Part shown: positions 2,394-60,404 of the stretch, piece after piece
Position numbering within the stretch: position 1 is the stretch's first letter
Layout: each line of letters begins with the position of its first letter
IMG/VR virus record: IMGVR_UViG_3300025000_000102
Coordinates: 1 to 62,071 of that record
Direction: 5' to 3' (one strand)
DNA: 62,071 nt
Source: a virus
Taxonomy: Duplodnaviria; Caudoviricetes
Notes under the pieces: model-generated
What the model was told of the DNA's origin: nothing
Database searches by the model: none
What the model saw: the letters and a program-made list of their open reading frames with translations, nothing else
Position numbers and translations under genes: made by a program

Positions 2394-3656
2394 GTGAATC
2401 TAATCCAAAGAGCAAAGCTCTTATTCAATAACGGCTACTTCGAAGAATACGTCCGCAGATTCCAAGCGGGCGAAGACATGCCGGAAAGCGGTCACTCAGG
2501 CGTAGGGTCTGACACCGCCATGAAATATTCGGCGGTTTTTGCATGCTGTCGAGTCCTCGGGGAGACGTTCGCAAGCATGCCGGCCATGGAATACCGCAAG
2601 AGTCCTAACGGAGATAGGGAAACAACAAGAGACACAGCCGCCTTCGACATCCTACACAATGCTCCAAATGCTGAAATGGCACCGTTTAGTTTTAAGGAAT
2701 CCTGCATGATGAACCTAAATCTTGGTGGTAATGCAGTATCAGAGAGGCTTGTTAACAGGTTTGGGGACCTAGTGGGCCTGTATCCCTACAAATGGCAAAT
2801 GGTAGACATCGGCAGAGATTTGGAGACCAAGCAGCTCGTCTACACGGTGACAGATGGAGCAACACAGAAGAAGCTAAGACGAGATCAAGTATTTCATGTC
2901 CCTGGACTAAGTTTTGACGGGATTATTGGTCTATCTCCCATAGAGTACGCAGCAAATGCGATTACGCTGGGTAAGAGTTATGAGCAGTTTGGTGTTAACT
3001 TTTACAAAAACGGTGCGAACTCTTCCGGCGCGTTCAGCTTCCCTGGTGAGCTTGGGGAAGAATCGTTTCAAAGACTAAAGAAGGACCTGAAGGATAACTA
3101 TGCAGGCCTGAAAAACACAGGTACACCGATGTTGCTCGAAGGTGGCGGAGAGTTTAAGCAGTTTGCCATGAAACCTGCTGACGCCCAACTAATCGAGAAC
3201 AAGCGGTTCCAGGTCGAAGATGTTGCTCGGATGTATCGCACTCCGTTGCACTTGATCGGAGACTTGACTAGGTCCACGAATAACAATATTGAGCATCAAA
3301 GCTTAGAGTTTGTGATGTATACCATGTTGCCTTGGTTTAAGCGCTGGGAAGAGAACATCAATATGCAGTTACTCGCTCCGTCAGAGCGTAGGGCGGGGTA
3401 TTATATCGAGTTTAACGTTGCTGGTTTATTGCGAGGTGATGCAAAAAGCAGGGCTGAAGCTTATGCGGCAGGTCGCCAATGGGGTTGGCTTAGTGTTAAT
3501 GATATCCGGAAGCTTGAAAATATGCCACACATAGCCAATGGAGACATTTACCTACAACCTAGCAATATGATTGAGGCTGGTAAAGAGGTACAGGAAGCTG
3601 ACAAAAACAAAGGATTAGCAGAGGAAGTTTACAAAATGATTACCGAGAGGGGGTGA
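2394..3656 (+). CDS. HK97-family portal protein
   Basis: SAVFACCRVL, DGIIGLSPI, GWLSVNDIRKLEN motifs; follows terL. Confidence 0.95.
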   Translation: MNLIQRAKLLFNNGYFEEYVRRFQAGEDMPESGHSGVGSDTAMKYSAVFACCRVLGETFASMPAMEYRKSPNGDRETTRDTAAFDILHNAPNAEMAPFSFKESCMMNLNLGGNAVSERLVNRFGDLVGLYPYKWQMVDIGRDLETKQLVYTVTDGATQKKLRRDQVFHVPGLSFDGIIGLSPIEYAANAITLGKSYEQFGVNFYKNGANSSGAFSFPGELGEESFQRLKKDLKDNYAGLKNTGTPMLLEGGGEFKQFAMKPADAQLIENKRFQVEDVARMYRTPLHLIGDLTRSTNNNIEHQSLEFVMYTMLPWFKRWEENINMQLLAPSERRAGYYIEFNVAGLLRGDAKSRAEAYAAGRQWGWLSVNDIRKLENMPHIANGDIYLQPSNMIEAGKEVQEADKNKGLAEEVYKMITERG

Positions 3657-4465
3657 AAATATTGCCGTTTTGGAACTTTGTTGAGTCTGGCGAGAATGAA
3701 GTAGAACTTCGTATCGAAGGCGAGATTGTAAGTGATGATGATATTTGGATTTATGAGTGGTTCGACATAAAAGCAACTTCACCAAACGCATTCAGATATG
3801 AGCTTGCTAGTCATGCAGGAAAAACAGTTAACGTCTGGATTGATAGTTGGGGAGGGGACACGACTGCCGCCGCAGGAATCTATAACGCTCTAAAAGAACA
3901 TAAGGGCAAAGTAGTAGGAAAGATCGACGGTAAAGCCGTTTCCGCTGCCTCCATTATAGCTATGGCATGTACTGAGTTGAAGATGTCACCAGTTGGTATC
4001 CTTATGATCCATAACCCGTGGACAGGCGTAAGGGGTGAGTCTAAGGATATGCGCCACATGGCTGATGTTTTGGACGAAGTCAAAGAAACCCTTATGAATG
4101 CCTATCAAATGAAAACCAAGAAGTCCAGAAAGAGCATTGCAGAAATGATGGACAATGAGACTTGGATGAGTCCAAAAACAGCTTTAGCAGAGGGATTTAT
4201 TGACGAGATCCTATACGCTAGCCCCGGTGAAGGTGAACCCGTTGAGAACTCTTTTATGATTGGGCGATTGGCAATACAAAATAGCGCAAATGAGGCAACT
4301 AGGCGGTTTATTGAGCAGTATACGAAGATAAAGGCTAGTGAGCCGCCACCTGAGCCTACTCCTGAACCAGAACCCATCCCCGACCCACAACCGGACCTGC
4401 AAGCCCTAGCTACCTTATACCAAGCAAAATTAAAAAATCTGAGGAGGAAGCAAAATGAACTTTAA
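3653..4465 (+). CDS. ClpP-like prohead protease
   Basis: IDSWGGD, AVSAASIIAM, LMIHNPW, ETWM...A...GFID motifs. Confidence 0.92.
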   Translation: MKILPFWNFVESGENEVELRIEGEIVSDDDIWIYEWFDIKATSPNAFRYELASHAGKTVNVWIDSWGGDTTAAAGIYNALKEHKGKVVGKIDGKAVSAASIIAMACTELKMSPVGILMIHNPWTGVRGESKDMRHMADVLDEVKETLMNAYQMKTKKSRKSIAEMMDNETWMSPKTALAEGFIDEILYASPGEGEPVENSFMIGRLAIQNSANEATRRFIEQYTKIKASEPPPEPTPEPEPIPDPQPDLQALATLYQAKLKNLRRKQNEL

Positions 4466-5836: not shown

Positions 5837-6298
5837 ATGAAACGATACAACCATGTAGTCAATGCCTTGGTACCCGTTGCTGATGCATTCACGGGCACAA
5901 AATACACCGATGTGATCAATATGAAGAACTGGAATCATATCCAATTCGTGATTCAGAAAGCCGCCGGAGCAGTAGGAACAGCAACAATCACAGTCGAAGC
6001 GTGCGACGATGTTGTACCTACAAATGTGAGTGCAGTGCCTTTTAAATACCAGAAATGCACGACAGGAGATACCTTTGGAGCATTAACAACCGTTGAAGCA
6101 ACAGGCTTTGCCACCACAGCCGGAGCCAATCAGATGTACAAGATCGAGGTTGATTCCGATGCCCTGGTAGTGTCTGGATACAGCTACATTCGCCTAAAGT
6201 CCGTAGAGGTCGTTGACGATCCGGTCCTTGGGGGAATCCTCGCTGTACTAACGGAGCCGCGATACAGCAACGAAGTAGCTGATACCACAATCGTCTAA
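5837..6298 (+). CDS. Virion protein, possible head decoration
   Basis: Strong RBS, beta-rich sequence, directly after capsid gene. Confidence 0.55.
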   Translation: MKRYNHVVNALVPVADAFTGTKYTDVINMKNWNHIQFVIQKAAGAVGTATITVEACDDVVPTNVSAVPFKYQKCTTGDTFGALTTVEATGFATTAGANQMYKIEVDSDALVVSGYSYIRLKSVEVVDDPVLGGILAVLTEPRYSNEVADTTIV

Positions 6299-20949: not shown

Positions 20950-20992
20950 TTCCTTTCGTTTGCCGAGTATCGGCTCCCGGCTGGCCTTTGGA
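20950..20992 (-). repeat. Conserved intergenic hairpin+RBS motif, copy A
   Basis: Reverse complement CCAAAGGCCAGCCGGGAGCCGATACTCGGCAAACGAAAGGAA matches copies at 57459 and 57713. Confidence 0.8.
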
Positions 20993-55765: not shown

Positions 55766-56275
55766 ATGTCCTACGAGTATTACATCACACCTCAGGAATA
55801 CGCCACGGCCCAGCAAAACGGCATTAGTTACTCCAGTGTATCTAACCGAGTACGTAACTTAGGGTGGACCGTAGAAAGAGCAATTACTGAACCATATCGG
55901 AAGACCAGGAGTCTTCTGGAGTGGAGAAAGATTGCCGATGCCAACGGGATAGGATACGAGGCATTTAGATCACGACTGCACAGAGGATGGAGTGTGGAGG
56001 ACGCAGCAACGAAGCCCGTATTTGACGTTGCAGTGCAGTGCAGGGAGCTATCTCAAAACCAGAGGAAGTATCAGGGGAAGCACATCGACGAAGCTCTAGA
56101 AAAGATCGGGATAACGTACGCGGTCTTCTCTCGAAGAATGAGAGATGGGTGGAATATGGAATTGGCTCTTAGTACCAAGAGAATGACCAAGTCCGAGGCG
56201 GCAAAGAAGGGACGCAGGGGATCGTATTGGACTCGCGGTCCGAGATTGTTAGGGAAGGAAGGGGTAAGGGTATGA
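55766..56275 (+). CDS. Repeated-HTH hypothetical protein
   Basis: Three NGI.Y....R...GW..E.A repeats. Confidence 0.7.
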   Translation: MSYEYYITPQEYATAQQNGISYSSVSNRVRNLGWTVERAITEPYRKTRSLLEWRKIADANGIGYEAFRSRLHRGWSVEDAATKPVFDVAVQCRELSQNQRKYQGKHIDEALEKIGITYAVFSRRMRDGWNMELALSTKRMTKSEAAKKGRRGSYWTRGPRLLGKEGVRV

Positions 56276-56373: not shown

Positions 56374-56401
56374 ACGTAATTTAAAGTTAAAAGGAAGCCC
56401 G

Positions 56402-56566
56402 CTATTTATTCGTGGGCTTCCCATACTTATTCAATATTAATTCAATTGCCTCGTCTAGTAGTTTCGATTGTGGTATCCTAGTTTCTTTTGATAATTTTTT
56501 AAACCTTTCTACCAGTTCGTTATCCACCGAGTTTGTATACCTTTGCCTTTTCTTTAAATCTCCCAT
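56402..56566 (-). CDS. Ribbon-helix-helix protein
   Basis: MGDLKKRQRYTNSVDNEL...LSKETRIPQSKLLDEAIE; GAGGTG RBS; not in track. Confidence 0.75.
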   Translation of the reverse strand: MGDLKKRQRYTNSVDNELVERFKKLSKETRIPQSKLLDEAIELILNKYGKPTNK

Positions 56567-56989
56567 GTTATCACCTCAATTTTAGATTATATATTATACT
56601 TAATCTTAGTGCAACTTACGCAAGCTTATGGTATAATATACATAAAAGGAGATGTTTGTTTGTGGTGGAAGATTTGGTAGGAAAAAGATTTGCGAGACTT
56701 ATAGTTACAAGTAAATCTAGCCGAAAAAAAGGACCGTATTGGAACTGCATTTGTGACTGTGGAAAAGAGAAAGAAGTACTTAATTATTTTGGCTATTCGG
56801 ATTAACGTGTTTAACTGATTAATACTCATAAATGTATACCATAGTTGTAGAACGGATTATCGTGTTGAAACCTTATCAAGTACATCACCCCTTTCATGTG
56901 TTTATAATTCGGATTAGTGTGTTGATGCACCACTTTCATTAGTGGTGTTTTTAATTGAAAAATAAACTTGAAATATCCCCTTTTACCCC

Positions 56990-57018
56990 TTTACATGTAA
57001 TGCAATTTGCAGTACAAT
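56990..57018 (+). promoter_or_regulatory. Sigma-A promoter for cargo operon with TGTAATGCAAT operator
   Basis: TTTACA-17-TACAAT; operator repeated at 58054-58064. Confidence 0.65.
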
Positions 57019-57052
57019 AGTATTAGGAGATGAAGTTGAGGGGGAAAACAAA

Positions 57053-57457
57053 ATGAAAAAGCAAACCACGAGAAAATTAGAAGATACGAGTTGGTTAGCC
57101 CAAATCATTCGAGATAAAATGGACGTTGAATTTGAGAAAAACCTTGGGTCTCCTCGTTATCACGCTTTACAAACCTTACACATTATTGTCAACGAAGCAG
57201 ACGATCAAGATAATCCAAACATCTACTACGACACCTACAACCGTAAACGGTCAATTACAATTTGCGAAATACCATCACTTATGAAGCATGGTTATGACTT
57301 TGACACAAACGGAATGCAATGCAAGCTCAGAGGACTTGCGGAGCGTTACACGGACGATGACGGAATGTACATTGTATCAGTACTAACAACCAACGACTTA
57401 AACAGTGCCATGATAAAGGATTTAGAAGAACTGATGTACCAACTCGGAACTCACTAA
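57053..57457 (+). CDS. IS cargo hypothetical protein 1
   Basis: GAGGGGG RBS, 134 aa. Confidence 0.7.
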   Translation: MKKQTTRKLEDTSWLAQIIRDKMDVEFEKNLGSPRYHALQTLHIIVNEADDQDNPNIYYDTYNRKRSITICEIPSLMKHGYDFDTNGMQCKLRGLAERYTDDDGMYIVSVLTTNDLNSAMIKDLEELMYQLGTH

Positions 57458-57458
57458 G

Positions 57459-57500
57459 CCCAAAAGGCCAGCCGGGAGCCAATACCCGGCAATGAGGAGG
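57459..57500 (+). repeat. Conserved intergenic hairpin+RBS motif, copy B
   Basis: CCAAAAGGCCAGCCGGGAGCCAATACCCGGCAATGAGGAGG. Confidence 0.85.
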
Positions 57501-57508
57501 GAACGAAG

Positions 57509-57712
57509 ATGGATGAGTTAGATGTTTGCGAGTGTGATATTTGTGGAAGGGTTTGGGATGTACAATTTCTAACCACCTATAGTCAAAAAGATTGGTTCAC
57601 TAATCCCAGGAAACATGGTTCACTTCGAGTGTGTGAGGAATGTGATACCGCCAGTGTAGCAACTGAGGGTGGTTATGAGATCGAGTATGACGGGACTATT
57701 TGGAACCAATAA
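57509..57712 (+). CDS. IS cargo protein 2 (acidic, CxxC pairs)
   Basis: CDIC...CEEC; AGGAGG RBS. Confidence 0.65.
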   Translation: MDELDVCECDICGRVWDVQFLTTYSQKDWFTNPRKHGSLRVCEECDTASVATEGGYEIEYDGTIWNQ

Positions 57713-57756
57713 CCCAAAGGCTAGCCGGGAGCCTCATACCCGGCAAATGAAAGGAG
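57713..57756 (+). repeat. Conserved intergenic hairpin+RBS motif, copy C
   Basis: CCCAAAGGCTAGCCGGGAGCCTCATACCCGGCAAATGAAAGGAG. Confidence 0.85.
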
Positions 57757-57764
57757 TTTTCAAA

Positions 57765-58016
57765 GTGTTTGAAGTATACATAGGTTCACACGACACTATG
57801 GGAAAAATCGCCCAACGTGGGGCTACTGGGCTAAATCGCAAAACCATGAGATACCAAGTCATTGACAAGACCGCGAAATACAGCATCGTTGATACTTGCC
57901 ACAAGGACTGTGTAAGTTACAGTGATTGTCAGGCTAAGGGTCACTCTCCTTGTGCCACCCTTTACAGCGACAAGGACTTAAGGGCAATTGCCAAGGAGAA
58001 GGGGTTAATAATGTAA
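57765..58016 (+). CDS. IS cargo protein 3 (Cys-containing)
   Basis: GTG start after AAGGAG; CX3CX4CX6C. Confidence 0.6.
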   Translation: MFEVYIGSHDTMGKIAQRGATGLNRKTMRYQVIDKTAKYSIVDTCHKDCVSYSDCQAKGHSPCATLYSDKDLRAIAKEKGLIM

Positions 58017-58102
58017 GGCATCCCTAAGGGCTAGTCCCTATTGCCTATTAAGTTGTAATGCAATATGCTATAGAAAAGGCTGGCGCAGGGGAGAGGAACT
58101 AA

Positions 58103-58285
58103 ATGTCATCACCTAACGAAGGTAAGTCCACCATCAATATCCGTTGCACACCAGAGGAGCATGAGACTATCACTAAGAAGGCTAAATCGTACGGCATGAG
58201 TATCAGTGAGTATGTGAGGTTCGTCAGCTTATACGCTAAAATATCAGTAACCGCACACAAGAAGGCATCAGGAGAAACAAGTTAA
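58103..58285 (+). CDS. IS cargo RHH (MobC/CopG-like) regulator
   Basis: TINIRCTPEEH..I..KA...GMSISEYVR; own promoter TTGCCT-17-TATGCT at 58041-58069. Confidence 0.8.
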   Translation: MSSPNEGKSTINIRCTPEEHETITKKAKSYGMSISEYVRFVSLYAKISVTAHKKASGETS

Positions 58286-58361
58286 TAACAATAGGATTAT
58301 CGTGTTGAAGTCCCCTTCTTTTCCGTGGTACAATTAGTCACGTTAGAGGAGGGGCTTTTAC

Positions 58362-59723
58362 ATGAACATACTAAACATCGAAGAATTAACTGTACTAGAG
58401 ATCAAGGAAGATCGTGACTATTTCATAGTGGCGGAGATGGCTTCTCCGCCTTCTTACTGTCCTCACTGTGGCTGTGTGCCCAATCTACAGGGGTTCGGTG
58501 GTAAGACACAACTAATCATGGATACGCCTTCTCATGGTAAGCGTGTAGGTATTTCCTTGCGTCGCAAGCGTTATCGTTGTAAGGAGTGTACTAGGACTTT
58601 CATGGAGCCGTTAAAGTTTGTTGATGAAAGCCGTTCAATGACTAAACGGTTGGTGGAATATATCGAGAAGCAATCCTTAAAGCGTACCTTCACTAGCCTT
58701 AGCGAAGAAATAGGACTTGACGAGAAGACTATCCGCAACGTATTTAAGGACTATGCCAAAGAGCTTGAGAAGCACCTTCACTTCGCCACACCTGTCTGGC
58801 TGGGCATTGACGAAGCCCATCTACTACACAACTTCCGCTGCGTCATATCTAACGTCAAGGATAAGACAATCCTTGAGATGCTAAAGGAACGCAGTAAGCC
58901 AACAGTGATTAGTTACCTTAGCCGTTTGCCGGATAAGGACAGGGTCGAGATAGTGTGTATGGATATGTGGCAACCATACCGGGATGCTGCTAACGCAACA
59001 CTTCCTCATGCCAAGGTAGTGATAGACAAGTTTCATGTGGTTAAAGGAGCCAGCATAGCCCTAGAGGGTATTCGTAAGTCGATACGGCAAGGGCTGACCG
59101 ATAAGCAGCGTAAGACCTTAATGCATGATCGGTTCACTCTCCTTAAACGCAAGTCATCATTAAAACCATTCGAACAAATGAAGTTGGAGTCATGGACAGC
59201 TAACTATCCCGAATTGGGATTGGCATATAAGCTCAAGGAAGACTTCTATGAGATCTTTGACGATAGCAAAGACAGGTATGAAGCGTATGATCGTTACCAG
59301 GCGTGGAAAGGTGAAATGCCATCGTCTATGGTGCCTCATTTTGAGCCTCTAATGACTTCAATGAGGAATTGGGAGCCTGAGATACTTAACTACTTCGAAC
59401 TGCCAAGCAAGCGTGCCACGAACGCTTACACTGAGGCATTAAACGGATTGATCAAGATTGTTAACAGAAATGGTCGTGGGTACTCATTCGATGTCCTTAG
59501 GGCCAAAATACTGTTTACGGAAGGAGTTCAAAAGGTGAAGAGGAATAACTATAAGCACAAGGATACTGATGTTGTTGCTGAGGTTGGCGCCAACATTGCT
59601 GATGGCGACCTAGAGAGTATAGTTCAATACATGTTGGAAAACTTTGATCGGAACCCTGGTGAGACCTTTTCAACACTCACCCAAGATATGACGGATGAAG
59701 AGAAGGAACTGTTTTCAACATGA
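58362..59723 (+). CDS. ISL3-family transposase
   Basis: CPHCG/CKEC zinc finger, LGIDE, CMDM, IDKFHV, TNAYTEALNG.IK...R.GRGY. Confidence 0.95.
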   Translation: MNILNIEELTVLEIKEDRDYFIVAEMASPPSYCPHCGCVPNLQGFGGKTQLIMDTPSHGKRVGISLRRKRYRCKECTRTFMEPLKFVDESRSMTKRLVEYIEKQSLKRTFTSLSEEIGLDEKTIRNVFKDYAKELEKHLHFATPVWLGIDEAHLLHNFRCVISNVKDKTILEMLKERSKPTVISYLSRLPDKDRVEIVCMDMWQPYRDAANATLPHAKVVIDKFHVVKGASIALEGIRKSIRQGLTDKQRKTLMHDRFTLLKRKSSLKPFEQMKLESWTANYPELGLAYKLKEDFYEIFDDSKDRYEAYDRYQAWKGEMPSSMVPHFEPLMTSMRNWEPEILNYFELPSKRATNAYTEALNGLIKIVNRNGRGYSFDVLRAKILFTEGVQKVKRNNYKHKDTDVVAEVGANIADGDLESIVQYMLENFDRNPGETFSTLTQDMTDEEKELFST

Positions 59724-60404
59724 TAATCCGATTACCCATTATTTTTTGCATAGCGGAAGAACTAAGAGTTGCGGTTGCTATAATATCGAGCGATTGAAGT
59801 CATACGGGCATTCATGTAAGCAAGATAATCCAAAATCTCATACTAGAATGTATAGCATATGGAATGGCATGAAGGATAGGTGTCTGAATCCTAATAATGA
59901 TAGATACTATGATTATGGGGGTAGAGGGATAACTTTATGCGACAAATGGTTATCATTTGACGGTTTTTACGAGGATATGAAGGAAGGTTACGATGATCTC
60001 CTTACTATCGACAGGATAGAAAACGACAAAGGTTATTCCTTGGATAATTGTAAATGGTCCACGAACGAAGAACAGTCAAACAATAAACGCACTAATCTGA
60101 AATTGACCTTTAACGGAGAAACTAAAACAGCGAAAGAATTTTGCCAAATATTCAATATCAACGAGGATACATTAAGGTCTAGATTAAAGAGAGGGTGGAG
60201 CCTAGAGAGGGCATTAACTTGTAACTCAAAAGTATGTAAATCTCCTCGTGATTTAAGCGAAAAAATTCAATGTGCTTGTGGTTGTGGAGAGGTAATTGGT
60301 AGATTTGATAGGTATGGTAGGGAAAGAAGGTTTATATCTGGTCATAACGGAAGGAAAATGTAGATCAATAATATTCGCCGTGTAAGTGAGGAGGAGGGGT
60401 TAGT

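Follow-up and report, generated by a model that had tools for sequence, protein, structure and literature searches.

An ISL3 insertion sequence in a temperate tailed phage probably carries a captured gene cassette regulated by a ribbon-helix-helix protein

The stretch of DNA analysed here, called the window throughout, is the whole of the 62,071-bp IMG/VR virus record IMGVR_UViG_3300025000_000102, the completeness of which is rated 86%. In it, a 2,947-bp element of the ISL3 family (positions 56791-59737) interrupts an HNH-like gene. The element encodes a transposase and, to the left of the transposase gene, carries four further open reading frames (ORFs): three small cargo genes, c1, c2 and c3, behind a predicted promoter P1, and a gene for a ribbon-helix-helix (RHH) protein behind a second predicted promoter, P2. 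Our analysis makes it likely that a transporter insertion sequence (tIS) transposed as one unit into the phage gene, and that the slot between its left end and its transposase gene holds a captured moron cassette under the control of the RHH protein. Because terminase, portal, primase/helicase, large serine integrase and packaging-type HNH genes are present among the window proteins, gene content indicates a temperate tailed phage.

Results

Ends, target site and mobile unit

The element is bounded by a perfect 8-bp direct duplication, ATTATTTT, at 56783-56790 and 59738-59745. Its left inverted repeat (IRL; GGCTATTCGG...) and the reverse complement of its right inverted repeat (IRR; GGGTAATCGG...) are alike at 19 of 24 positions and both arms begin with GG; the ends read GGCTATTCGGATTAAC... 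on the left and, as reverse complement, GGGTAATCGGATTATC... on the right. Imperfect terminal inverted repeats starting with GG are part of the ISfinder definition of the ISL3 family. The transposase matched the Pfam model DDE_Tnp_ISL3 (PF01610) over the full length of the model (1-240 of 240; 4.9e-59), as well as PF14690 (6.6e-11) and PF13542 (3.3e-10), which describe the ISL3 zinc ribbon and helix-turn-helix (HTH), and it reached 293.5 bits against the NCBIfam model transpos_ISL3 (NF033550), for which the cut-off is 180. Three traits of the family were found together: a DDE transposase with an N-terminal zinc ribbon and HTH, GG-tipped imperfect repeats and an 8-bp target duplication, which in this family is usually AT-rich. 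The element is probably complete and active, as judged from these features.

Removal of the element and one octamer by script opened a 248-codon HNH-like frame. The restored junction (..VLNYF/LHSG..SCGC) aligned without gaps to uninterrupted homologues in Staphylococcus phage vB_SauM_0414_108 and Enterococcus phage EA1 (gp60). A first-pass annotation, made from the letters of the window, had described a 2,947-bp ISL3 element with GG-tipped imperfect repeats and a perfect 8-bp duplication, had proposed that its excision restores the reading frame of the interrupted gene, and had suggested a search for related phages in which this gene is uninterrupted; the repeats, the transposase scores and the colinearity with two intact homologues bore out its description. 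Since the duplication flanks the full unit, and the internal repeat at 58294 has no GG tip, the sequence indicates that the whole 2,947-bp unit moved as one.

Independent Logan contigs from two samples (runs X1 and X3) spanned both junctions without differences, so that the earlier concern that reads might not support them did not materialise. The left junction was bridged by records of 16,772 (X1) and 7,074 nt (X3) and the right one by records of 3,936 and 3,381 nt; the stretch was contained in four runs of two samples from one study, labelled groundwater metagenome. The empty site, an element-free join, was absent from the contigs of X1 and X3, which is uninformative as to its true absence because contigs lose rare variants. 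The 62-kb record contained one copy of the element only. No near-identical copy was found in phage, viral, genome or metagenome collections, and a blastn search of 56600-59950 against 50,697 phage records gave zero matches.

A 16-nt core of the inverted repeats was present five times in the window (56799, 56854, 56911, 58294 and in IRR) against 0.73 expected, and none of 100 shuffled sequences reached five copies. The subterminal copies are probably additional transposase-binding sites, binding being what we infer from the repeated core. Three core copies at the left end were also considered as remnants of nested insertions; this was dropped, no matching right ends being found. The transposase gene would be transcribed from its own promoter and, because the -35 box of this promoter lies in the fourth core copy, it is probably autoregulated.

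Related elements and the cargo slot

A scan of viral contigs with the single transposase protein returned no matches, and the closest relatives were found by searches with a two-sequence transposase alignment. Locus L005 encodes a transposase 70-72% identical to that of the window in an element of 2,441 bp, which begins with the same left end and has two repeat cores and the left-end hairpin. Its cargo consists of P1 with a perfect operator palindrome, c1 (91% amino acid identity), a different 47-aa ORF, a near-identical P2 and the RHH gene (78%), which is followed directly by the transposase gene. Two further relatives carried perfect 8-bp duplications of their own: L041 (transposase 74% identical, 2,076 bp, GGATAAAA) and L039 (72%, 2,329 bp, CTTTAAAT; L053 represents this insertion in a separate assembly). 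These two elements have in common a 79-aa ORF, accompanied by other small ORFs, and contain neither c1 nor the RHH gene. The expectation that copies would occur at other loci with different duplications and variable cargo was thus borne out at the level of relatives. The fourth repeat core of the window element was not present in L005, L039 or L041. In genome contigs, transposases were at most 50% identical (55% for one 75-residue fragment), came mostly from metagenome-assembled genomes (MAGs) of Peptococcaceae, and had no c1 or RHH gene adjacent; in a plasmid collection, identity did not exceed 53%.

The ends of 42 related loci were searched by script, a clean end being defined as repeats alike at 17 or more of 24 positions plus an 8/8 duplication. 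Clean ends were found in 15 of the 42 rows, corresponding to 13 distinct insertions, and each of these 15 rows had 468-1571 bp between IRL and the start of the transposase gene. Among the remaining 27 rows, 11 had no repeat pair and 16 had pairs without a clean duplication; the latter include L016 and L029, with short distances (151-154 bp) and weak repeats. Pfam gave no match for 12 of 16 cargo ORFs tested in the relatives. The matches obtained were PAPS_reduct in two elements, an N6_N4 DNA methylase in one and YopX in one, and methylase and PAPS-reductase-like cargo genes were seen in L052, L021 and L033. Given the 468-1571 bp preceding the transposase gene in every clean-ended row, a cargo slot with variable contents appears to be a property of this clade, which was found in viral and metagenome contigs. 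No cargo-less copy of the 58290-59737 part turned up in the record itself or in the viral, genome and metagenome scans; the first-pass annotation had allowed that only this part might prove mobile elsewhere.

Some further observations concern these relatives. A cargo ORF of L039 (881-1111) matched the C-terminal part of PHROG 9107 (9.6e-23), and a gene flanking the L039 element (2920-3231) gave a weak Lar-like restriction-alleviation match (0.0051). Excision of the L005 element plus 8 bp opened a frame of 120 codons, as against 92 codons without the extra 8 bp. The L005 flanks (3790-3797 and 6239-6246) are roughly reverse complements of each other, as are those of L049 (TAAAAAAG and GCTTTTTT), which may reflect recombination between copies, a target preference for A/T runs or a different definition of the ends. 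Low-depth contigs in X1 and X3 matched 56832-56929, 58038-58077 and 58371-58459 with differences and then ran into other sequence: they carry the left subterminal region joined to different sequence, an L005-type P2 and a diverged transposase. Such diverging contigs suggest that more members of the clade, with other cargo, coexist in these samples.

Operators and the RHH regulator

The half-site TGTAATGCAAT was found at 56996 and at 58054 (58054-58064), in the spacers of both P1 and P2, in agreement with the earlier observation of a motif common to the cargo and RHH promoters. At P1 it forms one arm of a near-palindromic operator, TGTAATGCAA-T-TTGCAGTACA (56996-57016), that fills the spacer and runs into the -10 box. 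This 10-1-10 palindrome is perfect in L005 and carries one mismatch in the window and in two other viral contigs, L060 and L067. The right half of the P2 operator is degenerate.

The RHH protein matched the NikA-like Pfam model PF21983 (1.4e-14, 54.5 bits, cut-off 27); its closest solved relative was NikA (2ba3, E 0.0013), and weak matches were obtained to HicB, RelB, ParD and TacA models. The ORFs of the element and of its neighbours include no relaxase that could be found, and 'NikA-like' therefore names the RHH fold and not a role. By eye, the T-x-N-x-R residues of the first strand are retained in all four cassettes described below, in each of which RHH is the last gene, behind four different payloads.

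The cargo reads as two transcription units, P1 driving c1-c2-c3 and P2 driving RHH, possibly with reading into the transposase gene, next to a separately promoted transposase. The first-pass annotation had proposed a four-gene cargo operon: the four ORFs, RHH included, do stand to the left of the transposase, and the single operon has to give way to the two predicted units. A terminator-like hairpin behind the third repeat core (56927-56956) is placed so that it would insulate the cargo from transcription entering through the HNH-like gene.

Free cassettes and payload exchange

Another four viral contigs encode RHH homologues 60-85% identical to that of the element, and the 3.5 kb on each side of them contained no transposase. 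In L060, a P1 region of about 100 nt with an identical 21-nt operator drives ORFs of 88 and 65 aa followed by an RHH gene (85%), the cassette standing between head-completion and head-tail-connector genes of the opposite strand. In L067, recovered by an exact-pattern scan for the operator and -10 box, the same 23-nt operator/-10 stretch is followed by a 78-aa ORF and an RHH gene (44%), between terminase and portal genes. Neither contig contained a repeat core or a transposase within the 2-3.5 kb available on each side. The four cassettes thus combine one operator and one regulator family with four payloads; two are free and two lie within ISL3 elements. Because the frame of P1, operator and RHH also occurs free, these comparisons indicate that a regulator-anchored moron cassette with variable payload was captured by a phage-resident ISL3 lineage and was not built by the insertion sequence (IS).

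The cargo gene c1 was likewise found without a transposase in six loci on five distinct viral contigs (up to 4 kb on each side). Ratios of nonsynonymous to synonymous substitution (dN/dS) of 0.09-0.12 for c1, 0.06-0.10 for the transposase and 0.08 for RHH point to purifying selection on all three genes. Between the window and the free phage copy in L007, synonymous divergence (dS) of c1 was 0.40, and it was 0.47 to the IS-borne copy in L005; the transposases of the window and L005 are saturated (dS 1.9). The payload therefore appears to have been exchanged after the elements diverged.

The duplication encloses four ORFs in addition to the transposase gene, so that genes presumably not needed for transposition lie within the terminal repeats. 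Homologues of c1 and RHH occur without a transposase and close IS relatives have neither, which is the trait of a tIS and agrees with the passenger-carrying tIS first proposed for this locus.

Cargo proteins and feature map

A search of a 5.8-billion-protein collection with c1 gave 192 clusters at E 0.001 or better. The best 120 of the 192 are 65-93% identical, and among these a few bear genome names (Sporomusa, MAGs). An exhaustive profile search yielded 54 representatives at 50% identity, none with a Pfam domain, and Pfam searches with 20 distant relatives returned nothing informative. Foldseek aligned the confident AlphaFold model of c1 (pLDDT 84, pTM 0.78) to no structure in PDB or BFVD at E 0.001 or better; the c1 profile had no match among PDB sequences, and ESM Atlas gave no usable one. 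The protein is mildly acidic, with an isoelectric point (pI) of 5.1.

Where phages carry c1 but lack the IS, a promoter stands directly ahead of c1 as the leading gene. In L011 c1 diverges from a Cro/C1-type HTH gene (PF13443, 4.5e-18) and in L007 from a 116-aa gene, in both cases two small genes upstream of a tyrosine integrase, and in L008 it stands beside weakly NikA-like small genes. The c1 promoter of L007 (about 1290-1400) is a different one that contains TACTAACGCTA twice, once in the spacer, which suggests that the same payload gene is there under operator-in-spacer control by a different, divergent regulator.

The second cargo protein, c2, is probably a zinc ribbon, to go by its cysteine pattern; a viral-contig scan with it gave three stretches, none of them a usable locus. 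Acidic pI values of 4.0-4.3 are common to c2, the 47-aa ORF of L005 and two L039 ORFs. PADLOC matched none of 11 cargo proteins. For c3, the sole match was its own cluster, and the viral-contig scan was also empty.

Table 1. Features of the ISL3 element and the interrupted gene, in window coordinates.
Feature	Position	Strand	Remarks
HNH-like gene, N-terminal 43 codons	56662..56790	+	Last 8 bases are the left duplication copy; GTG start at 56662 picked by eye from upstream AAAGGAG
IRL, GG-tipped	56791..56814	+	19/24 to IRR; holds repeat core copy 1 (56799-56814)
Repeat core copies 2 and 3	56854..56926	+	GGATTATCGTGTTGAA-like, at 56854-56869 and 56911-56926; spacing 55 and 57 bp
Terminator-like hairpin and T run behind third core	56927..56956	+	Conserved in L005
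Predicted promoter P1, TTTACA-17-TACAAT	56990..57018	+	10/12 consensus positions; near-identical in L005, L060 and L067
c1, 134 aa	57053..57457	+	Conserved phage protein family without known domain
Intergenic GC hairpin	57471..57490	+	Directly ahead of c2 ribosome-binding site
c2, 67 aa, CxxC...CxxC	57509..57712	+	Acidic (pI 4.1); zinc-ribbon call by eye
GC hairpin, second copy	57724..57744	+	Ahead of c3
c3, 83 aa, orphan ORF	57765..58016	+	GTG start
Predicted P2 region, 43 nt	58036..58078	+	72%-identical repeat of P1 region; near-identical in L005; hexamers read by eye
RHH gene, 60 aa, NikA-like	58103..58285	+	Presumed repressor of P1 and P2
Repeat core copy 4 (58294-58309) and transposase promoter	58294..58334	+	Core gives -35 box of TTGAAG-18-TG-TACAAT (58305-58334)
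ISL3 transposase, 453 aa	58362..59723	+	Intact, full-length
IRR	59714..59737	-	Overlaps 3' end of transposase gene
Right duplication copy and HNH-like gene, C-terminal 205 codons	59738..60363	+	Duplication 59738-59745; gene 59746-60363

The conserved GC hairpin has the form GCCGRGRGCC N2-6 ACYCGGC and is placed after a stop codon, ahead of the ribosome-binding site that follows. Three copies were found in the window, at 20962-20981 (-), 57471-57490 (+) and 57724-57744 (+), and in none of 100 shuffles; the site at 20962-20981 belongs to the phage backbone, far from the IS. Further copies lie at 4421-4440 in L005 and 4421-4440 in L006. At one pair of the stem G-C is replaced by A-U, a compensatory change for which a G-U intermediate was also seen, and the hairpin had no Rfam match. 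It could be a site of RNA processing, stability or protein binding common to these phages. Rfam searches at E 1 or better returned just two matches, both at chance level.

The interrupted gene and its neighbours

The C-terminal half of the HNH-like gene matched PHROG 3377 ('HNH endonuclease', 1.2e-54) and PHROG 374, which has the same label (6.6e-51); no Pfam HNH model matched this half at E 0.05 or better. The GC content of the gene is 33-38% (56400-56800 and 59750-60400), against about 45-50% in the surrounding phage DNA. Being markedly AT-rich relative to its surroundings, the target looks dispensable and itself foreign, an imported gene of the homing-endonuclease type, and the insertion would then be a mobile element within a mobile gene. 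An adjoining 169-aa ORF (55766-56275) matched the C-terminal part of PHROG 3377 (1.5e-14). An Arc-like RHH gene of the phage backbone (56402-56566, -; PF12651, 2.9e-18; PHROG 3180) is the immediate upstream neighbour of the HNH-like gene, in divergent orientation; it is outside the element and has so far shown no relation to the cargo operator.

Discussion

Collectively, the data make it likely that an ISL3 tIS entered the HNH-like gene of this phage as a single unit, with a captured, RHH-regulated cassette in its cargo slot. The features described suggest how such a unit could work. On entry of the DNA into a cell free of RHH protein, P1 and P2 would fire and give a burst of small proteins. 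The RHH protein would then accumulate, bind the operators in the promoter spacers and shut both units off, while the hairpin terminator behind the left end would shield the cassette from outside transcription. Acting on the GG-tipped outer ends, the transposase would move the cassette together with its own gene, and the regulated payload could pass between phage genomes in this way.

Several observations weigh against this reading. RHH binding, repression, transposition and payload activity are all predictions made from sequence. There is no second copy of the exact element and the best relatives share at most 74% transposase identity, so that the mobility of this exact sequence rests on one insertion; the window may itself derive from the runs that span the junctions. 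No direct duplication flanks the L005 element, which is bordered by TTAAAAAA and GTTTTTTC. The promoters were assigned from consensus matches; promoter-like sites are no commoner here than in shuffles (7 versus 7.8), and P2 was missed by the promoter scan. Having no homologue, c3 may not be a gene. Cargo proteins had no match of known function in Pfam, PHROGs, NCBIfam or PADLOC. The c1 model gave weak winged-helix-like matches only (Z 5-6, maximum 6.0; rmsd 3.1 over 86 residues), a level below that which the aligner treats as meaningful and one that may reflect a common arrangement. By itself the 11-mer TGTAATGCAAT is within chance, with two matches against a shuffle mean of 1.63 and 50 of 100 shuffles reaching two. 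The half-site nevertheless carries weight because it lies in both promoter spacers, makes up one half of a palindrome and has been conserved in a further three contigs; in view of this conservation, the idea that the cargo promoter motif is a chance 11-mer was dropped.

The other readings differ mainly in what they take the passengers to be. We think it unlikely that c1 is a regulator of the lysis-lysogeny switch (Cro-like, an antirepressor or another DNA-binding protein) and that the IS merely picked up a regulatory cassette. Such a role would suit c1 at the head of an operon divergent from a Cro/C1-type gene in L011, its position divergent from a 116-aa gene with the repeated TACTAACGCTA in the promoter in L007, the tyrosine integrase after two small genes downstream in both, and the identity of the top structural matches, which are winged-helix DNA-binding domains (Mga, ETS, CRP; Z 5-6). 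Those fold matches are, however, under the tool's own trust level, and switch regulators usually diverge fast with immunity type, whereas c1 is 65-93% identical in the best 120 of 192 clusters, stands behind differing promoters and operators, and has a mildly acidic pI of 5.1. It seems improbable that the cassette is an addiction or exclusion module, with RHH as antitoxin and repressor of a toxin-antitoxin-like pair or of superinfection exclusion, that stabilises the IS or prophage and does not help infection. RHH proteins are common antitoxins and the protein gave weak HicB, RelB, ParD and TacA matches; autoregulated small-gene operons are typical of such modules, and the phage that hosts the element is temperate and encodes a large serine integrase. 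The best match of the RHH protein is nevertheless NikA/MobA-like and not to any antitoxin family, PADLOC matched none of the 11 cargo proteins, and the payload is wholly different in four cassettes while regulator and operator stay constant, a pattern better suited to a regulator with exchangeable genes than to a toxin and its matched antitoxin.

It is more improbable still that RHH, and perhaps c1, belong to the transposition machinery and are no passengers, acting as accessory DNA-binding factors or transposase regulators in the manner of relaxosome-type RHH proteins. NikA-like proteins do bend DNA at transfer origins, and in L005 the RHH gene runs directly into the transposase gene; with no promoter or repeat core between them, P2 and RHH would set the transposase level there. 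Yet L039 and L041, with transposases 72-74% identical, have neither RHH nor c1, RHH and its operator occur in L060 and L067 without a transposase within 2-3.5 kb on each side, and c1 is transposase-free in the six loci described above. The remaining alternative concerns the unit itself: the mobile element would be of ordinary size, 58286-59737, and the 1.5 kb to its left would be phage DNA that a stray IRL-like sequence happens to delimit and that was mobilised once by accident. An exact repeat core with a promoter does lie at 58294, where a 1.45-kb ISL3 element would start, and this copy is the best arm match to IRR (90% over 20 nt). Outside this core, however, stands TAACAATA and not the GG(G/C)TA tip that all relatives have in common with IRL and IRR; it is the 2,947-bp unit that the duplication and the restored frame enclose; L005 keeps the long architecture across about 30% transposase divergence; and the short form was not seen in the window's own record or in viral, genome and metagenome scans. 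We regard this alternative as very improbable.

With a captured cassette as the preferred reading, our tentative best guess is that the payload consists of early-acting proteins of host takeover or counter-defence. The architecture and the tight, early-type regulation would fit such functions; the position of c1 would also fit a switch regulator. A bolder proposal, and on balance a doubtful one, is that the phage-resident ISL3 lineage is a shuttle of regulator-anchored counter-defence cassettes among unrelated phages, with RHH as an Aca-like repressor and c1 as a new and widespread anti-defence or host-takeover protein.

Phages are held to tolerate insertion sequences poorly (PMC3429520). The present ISL3 clade seems to be resident in phage DNA, always with a cargo slot, and the element may serve as a compact natural model in which to ask if its cargo enables a transposon to persist within a virus. 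The pair of RHH and operator could be used as bait for listing uncharacterised early phage genes and further payloads, and c1, a highly conserved orphan family, is easily cloned and assayed. If the payloads were anti-defence proteins, phages would have in transposition a way of exchanging such genes in addition to recombination.

Comparison with known systems

Phage morons, as defined by Hendrix and colleagues, are autonomous promoter-gene-terminator units among structural genes. The L060 and L067 cassettes resemble them in lying between head or packaging genes with a promoter of their own, L060 on the opposite strand, and differ from them in having a dedicated repressor, an interchangeable payload and, twice, a place in the cargo slot of an IS. 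Among ISL3 elements with several passenger genes inside the repeats is ISPpu12 of the Pseudomonas putida plasmid pWW0, with a MerR-like regulator, a cation-efflux protein and lspA; it is not known to be phage-borne.

Another counterpart is ISPst2, an ISL3 tIS of 2,985 bp reported on bacterial plasmids, with two passenger genes for an ArsR regulator and a permease; the cargo-less ISArsp7 is 1,451 bp in all (PMC6305408, Table 3). According to this published description, ISPst2 shares with the window element the family, a nearly equal length, 8-bp AT-rich direct repeats and passengers that include a transcription regulator. Its imperfect repeats are likewise GG-tipped and follow the same pattern, with the same tip (GGGTAT.CGGA): GGGTATCCGGA... 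in ISPst2, GGGTATTCGGA... in L041 and GGCTATTCGGA... in the present element. It differs by its passengers and its plasmid location, as compared with small phage ORFs and RHH in a phage, and the subterminal repeat cores and the free-living cassette are features of the window element that the account consulted does not describe for ISPst2 (PMC6305408).

The regulatory layout had been likened in the first-pass annotation to acr-aca operons. This likeness is one of architecture; no cargo protein matched a known anti-defence or defence family in Pfam, PHROGs, NCBIfam or PADLOC. The RHH regulator Aca14 of Pasteurella multocida is described as repressing a pair of anti-defence operons, its sites being inverted repeats that overlie the promoter (PMC13551039). 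As in that system, a strong promoter, small variable genes, a conserved 3' DNA-binding regulator and an inverted-repeat operator over the promoter are combined here, and one regulator has sites in two neighbouring promoters (PMC13551039). Unlike in acr-aca operons, there is no known acr gene here, and repression is a prediction set against the published description of Aca14. The present operon also rides a transposon, while the words 'transposon' and 'insertion sequence' are absent from the main text of the Aca14 paper (PMC13551039), and our literature search, of limited coverage, found no publication linking ISL3, phages and anti-defence. Passenger-carrying ISL3 elements are thus already known, as is the control of anti-defence operons by an RHH protein that has sites in two promoters. 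What is new is a passenger that is a complete regulator-anchored cassette with interchangeable payload, and the occurrence of the same cassette both free and transposon-borne.

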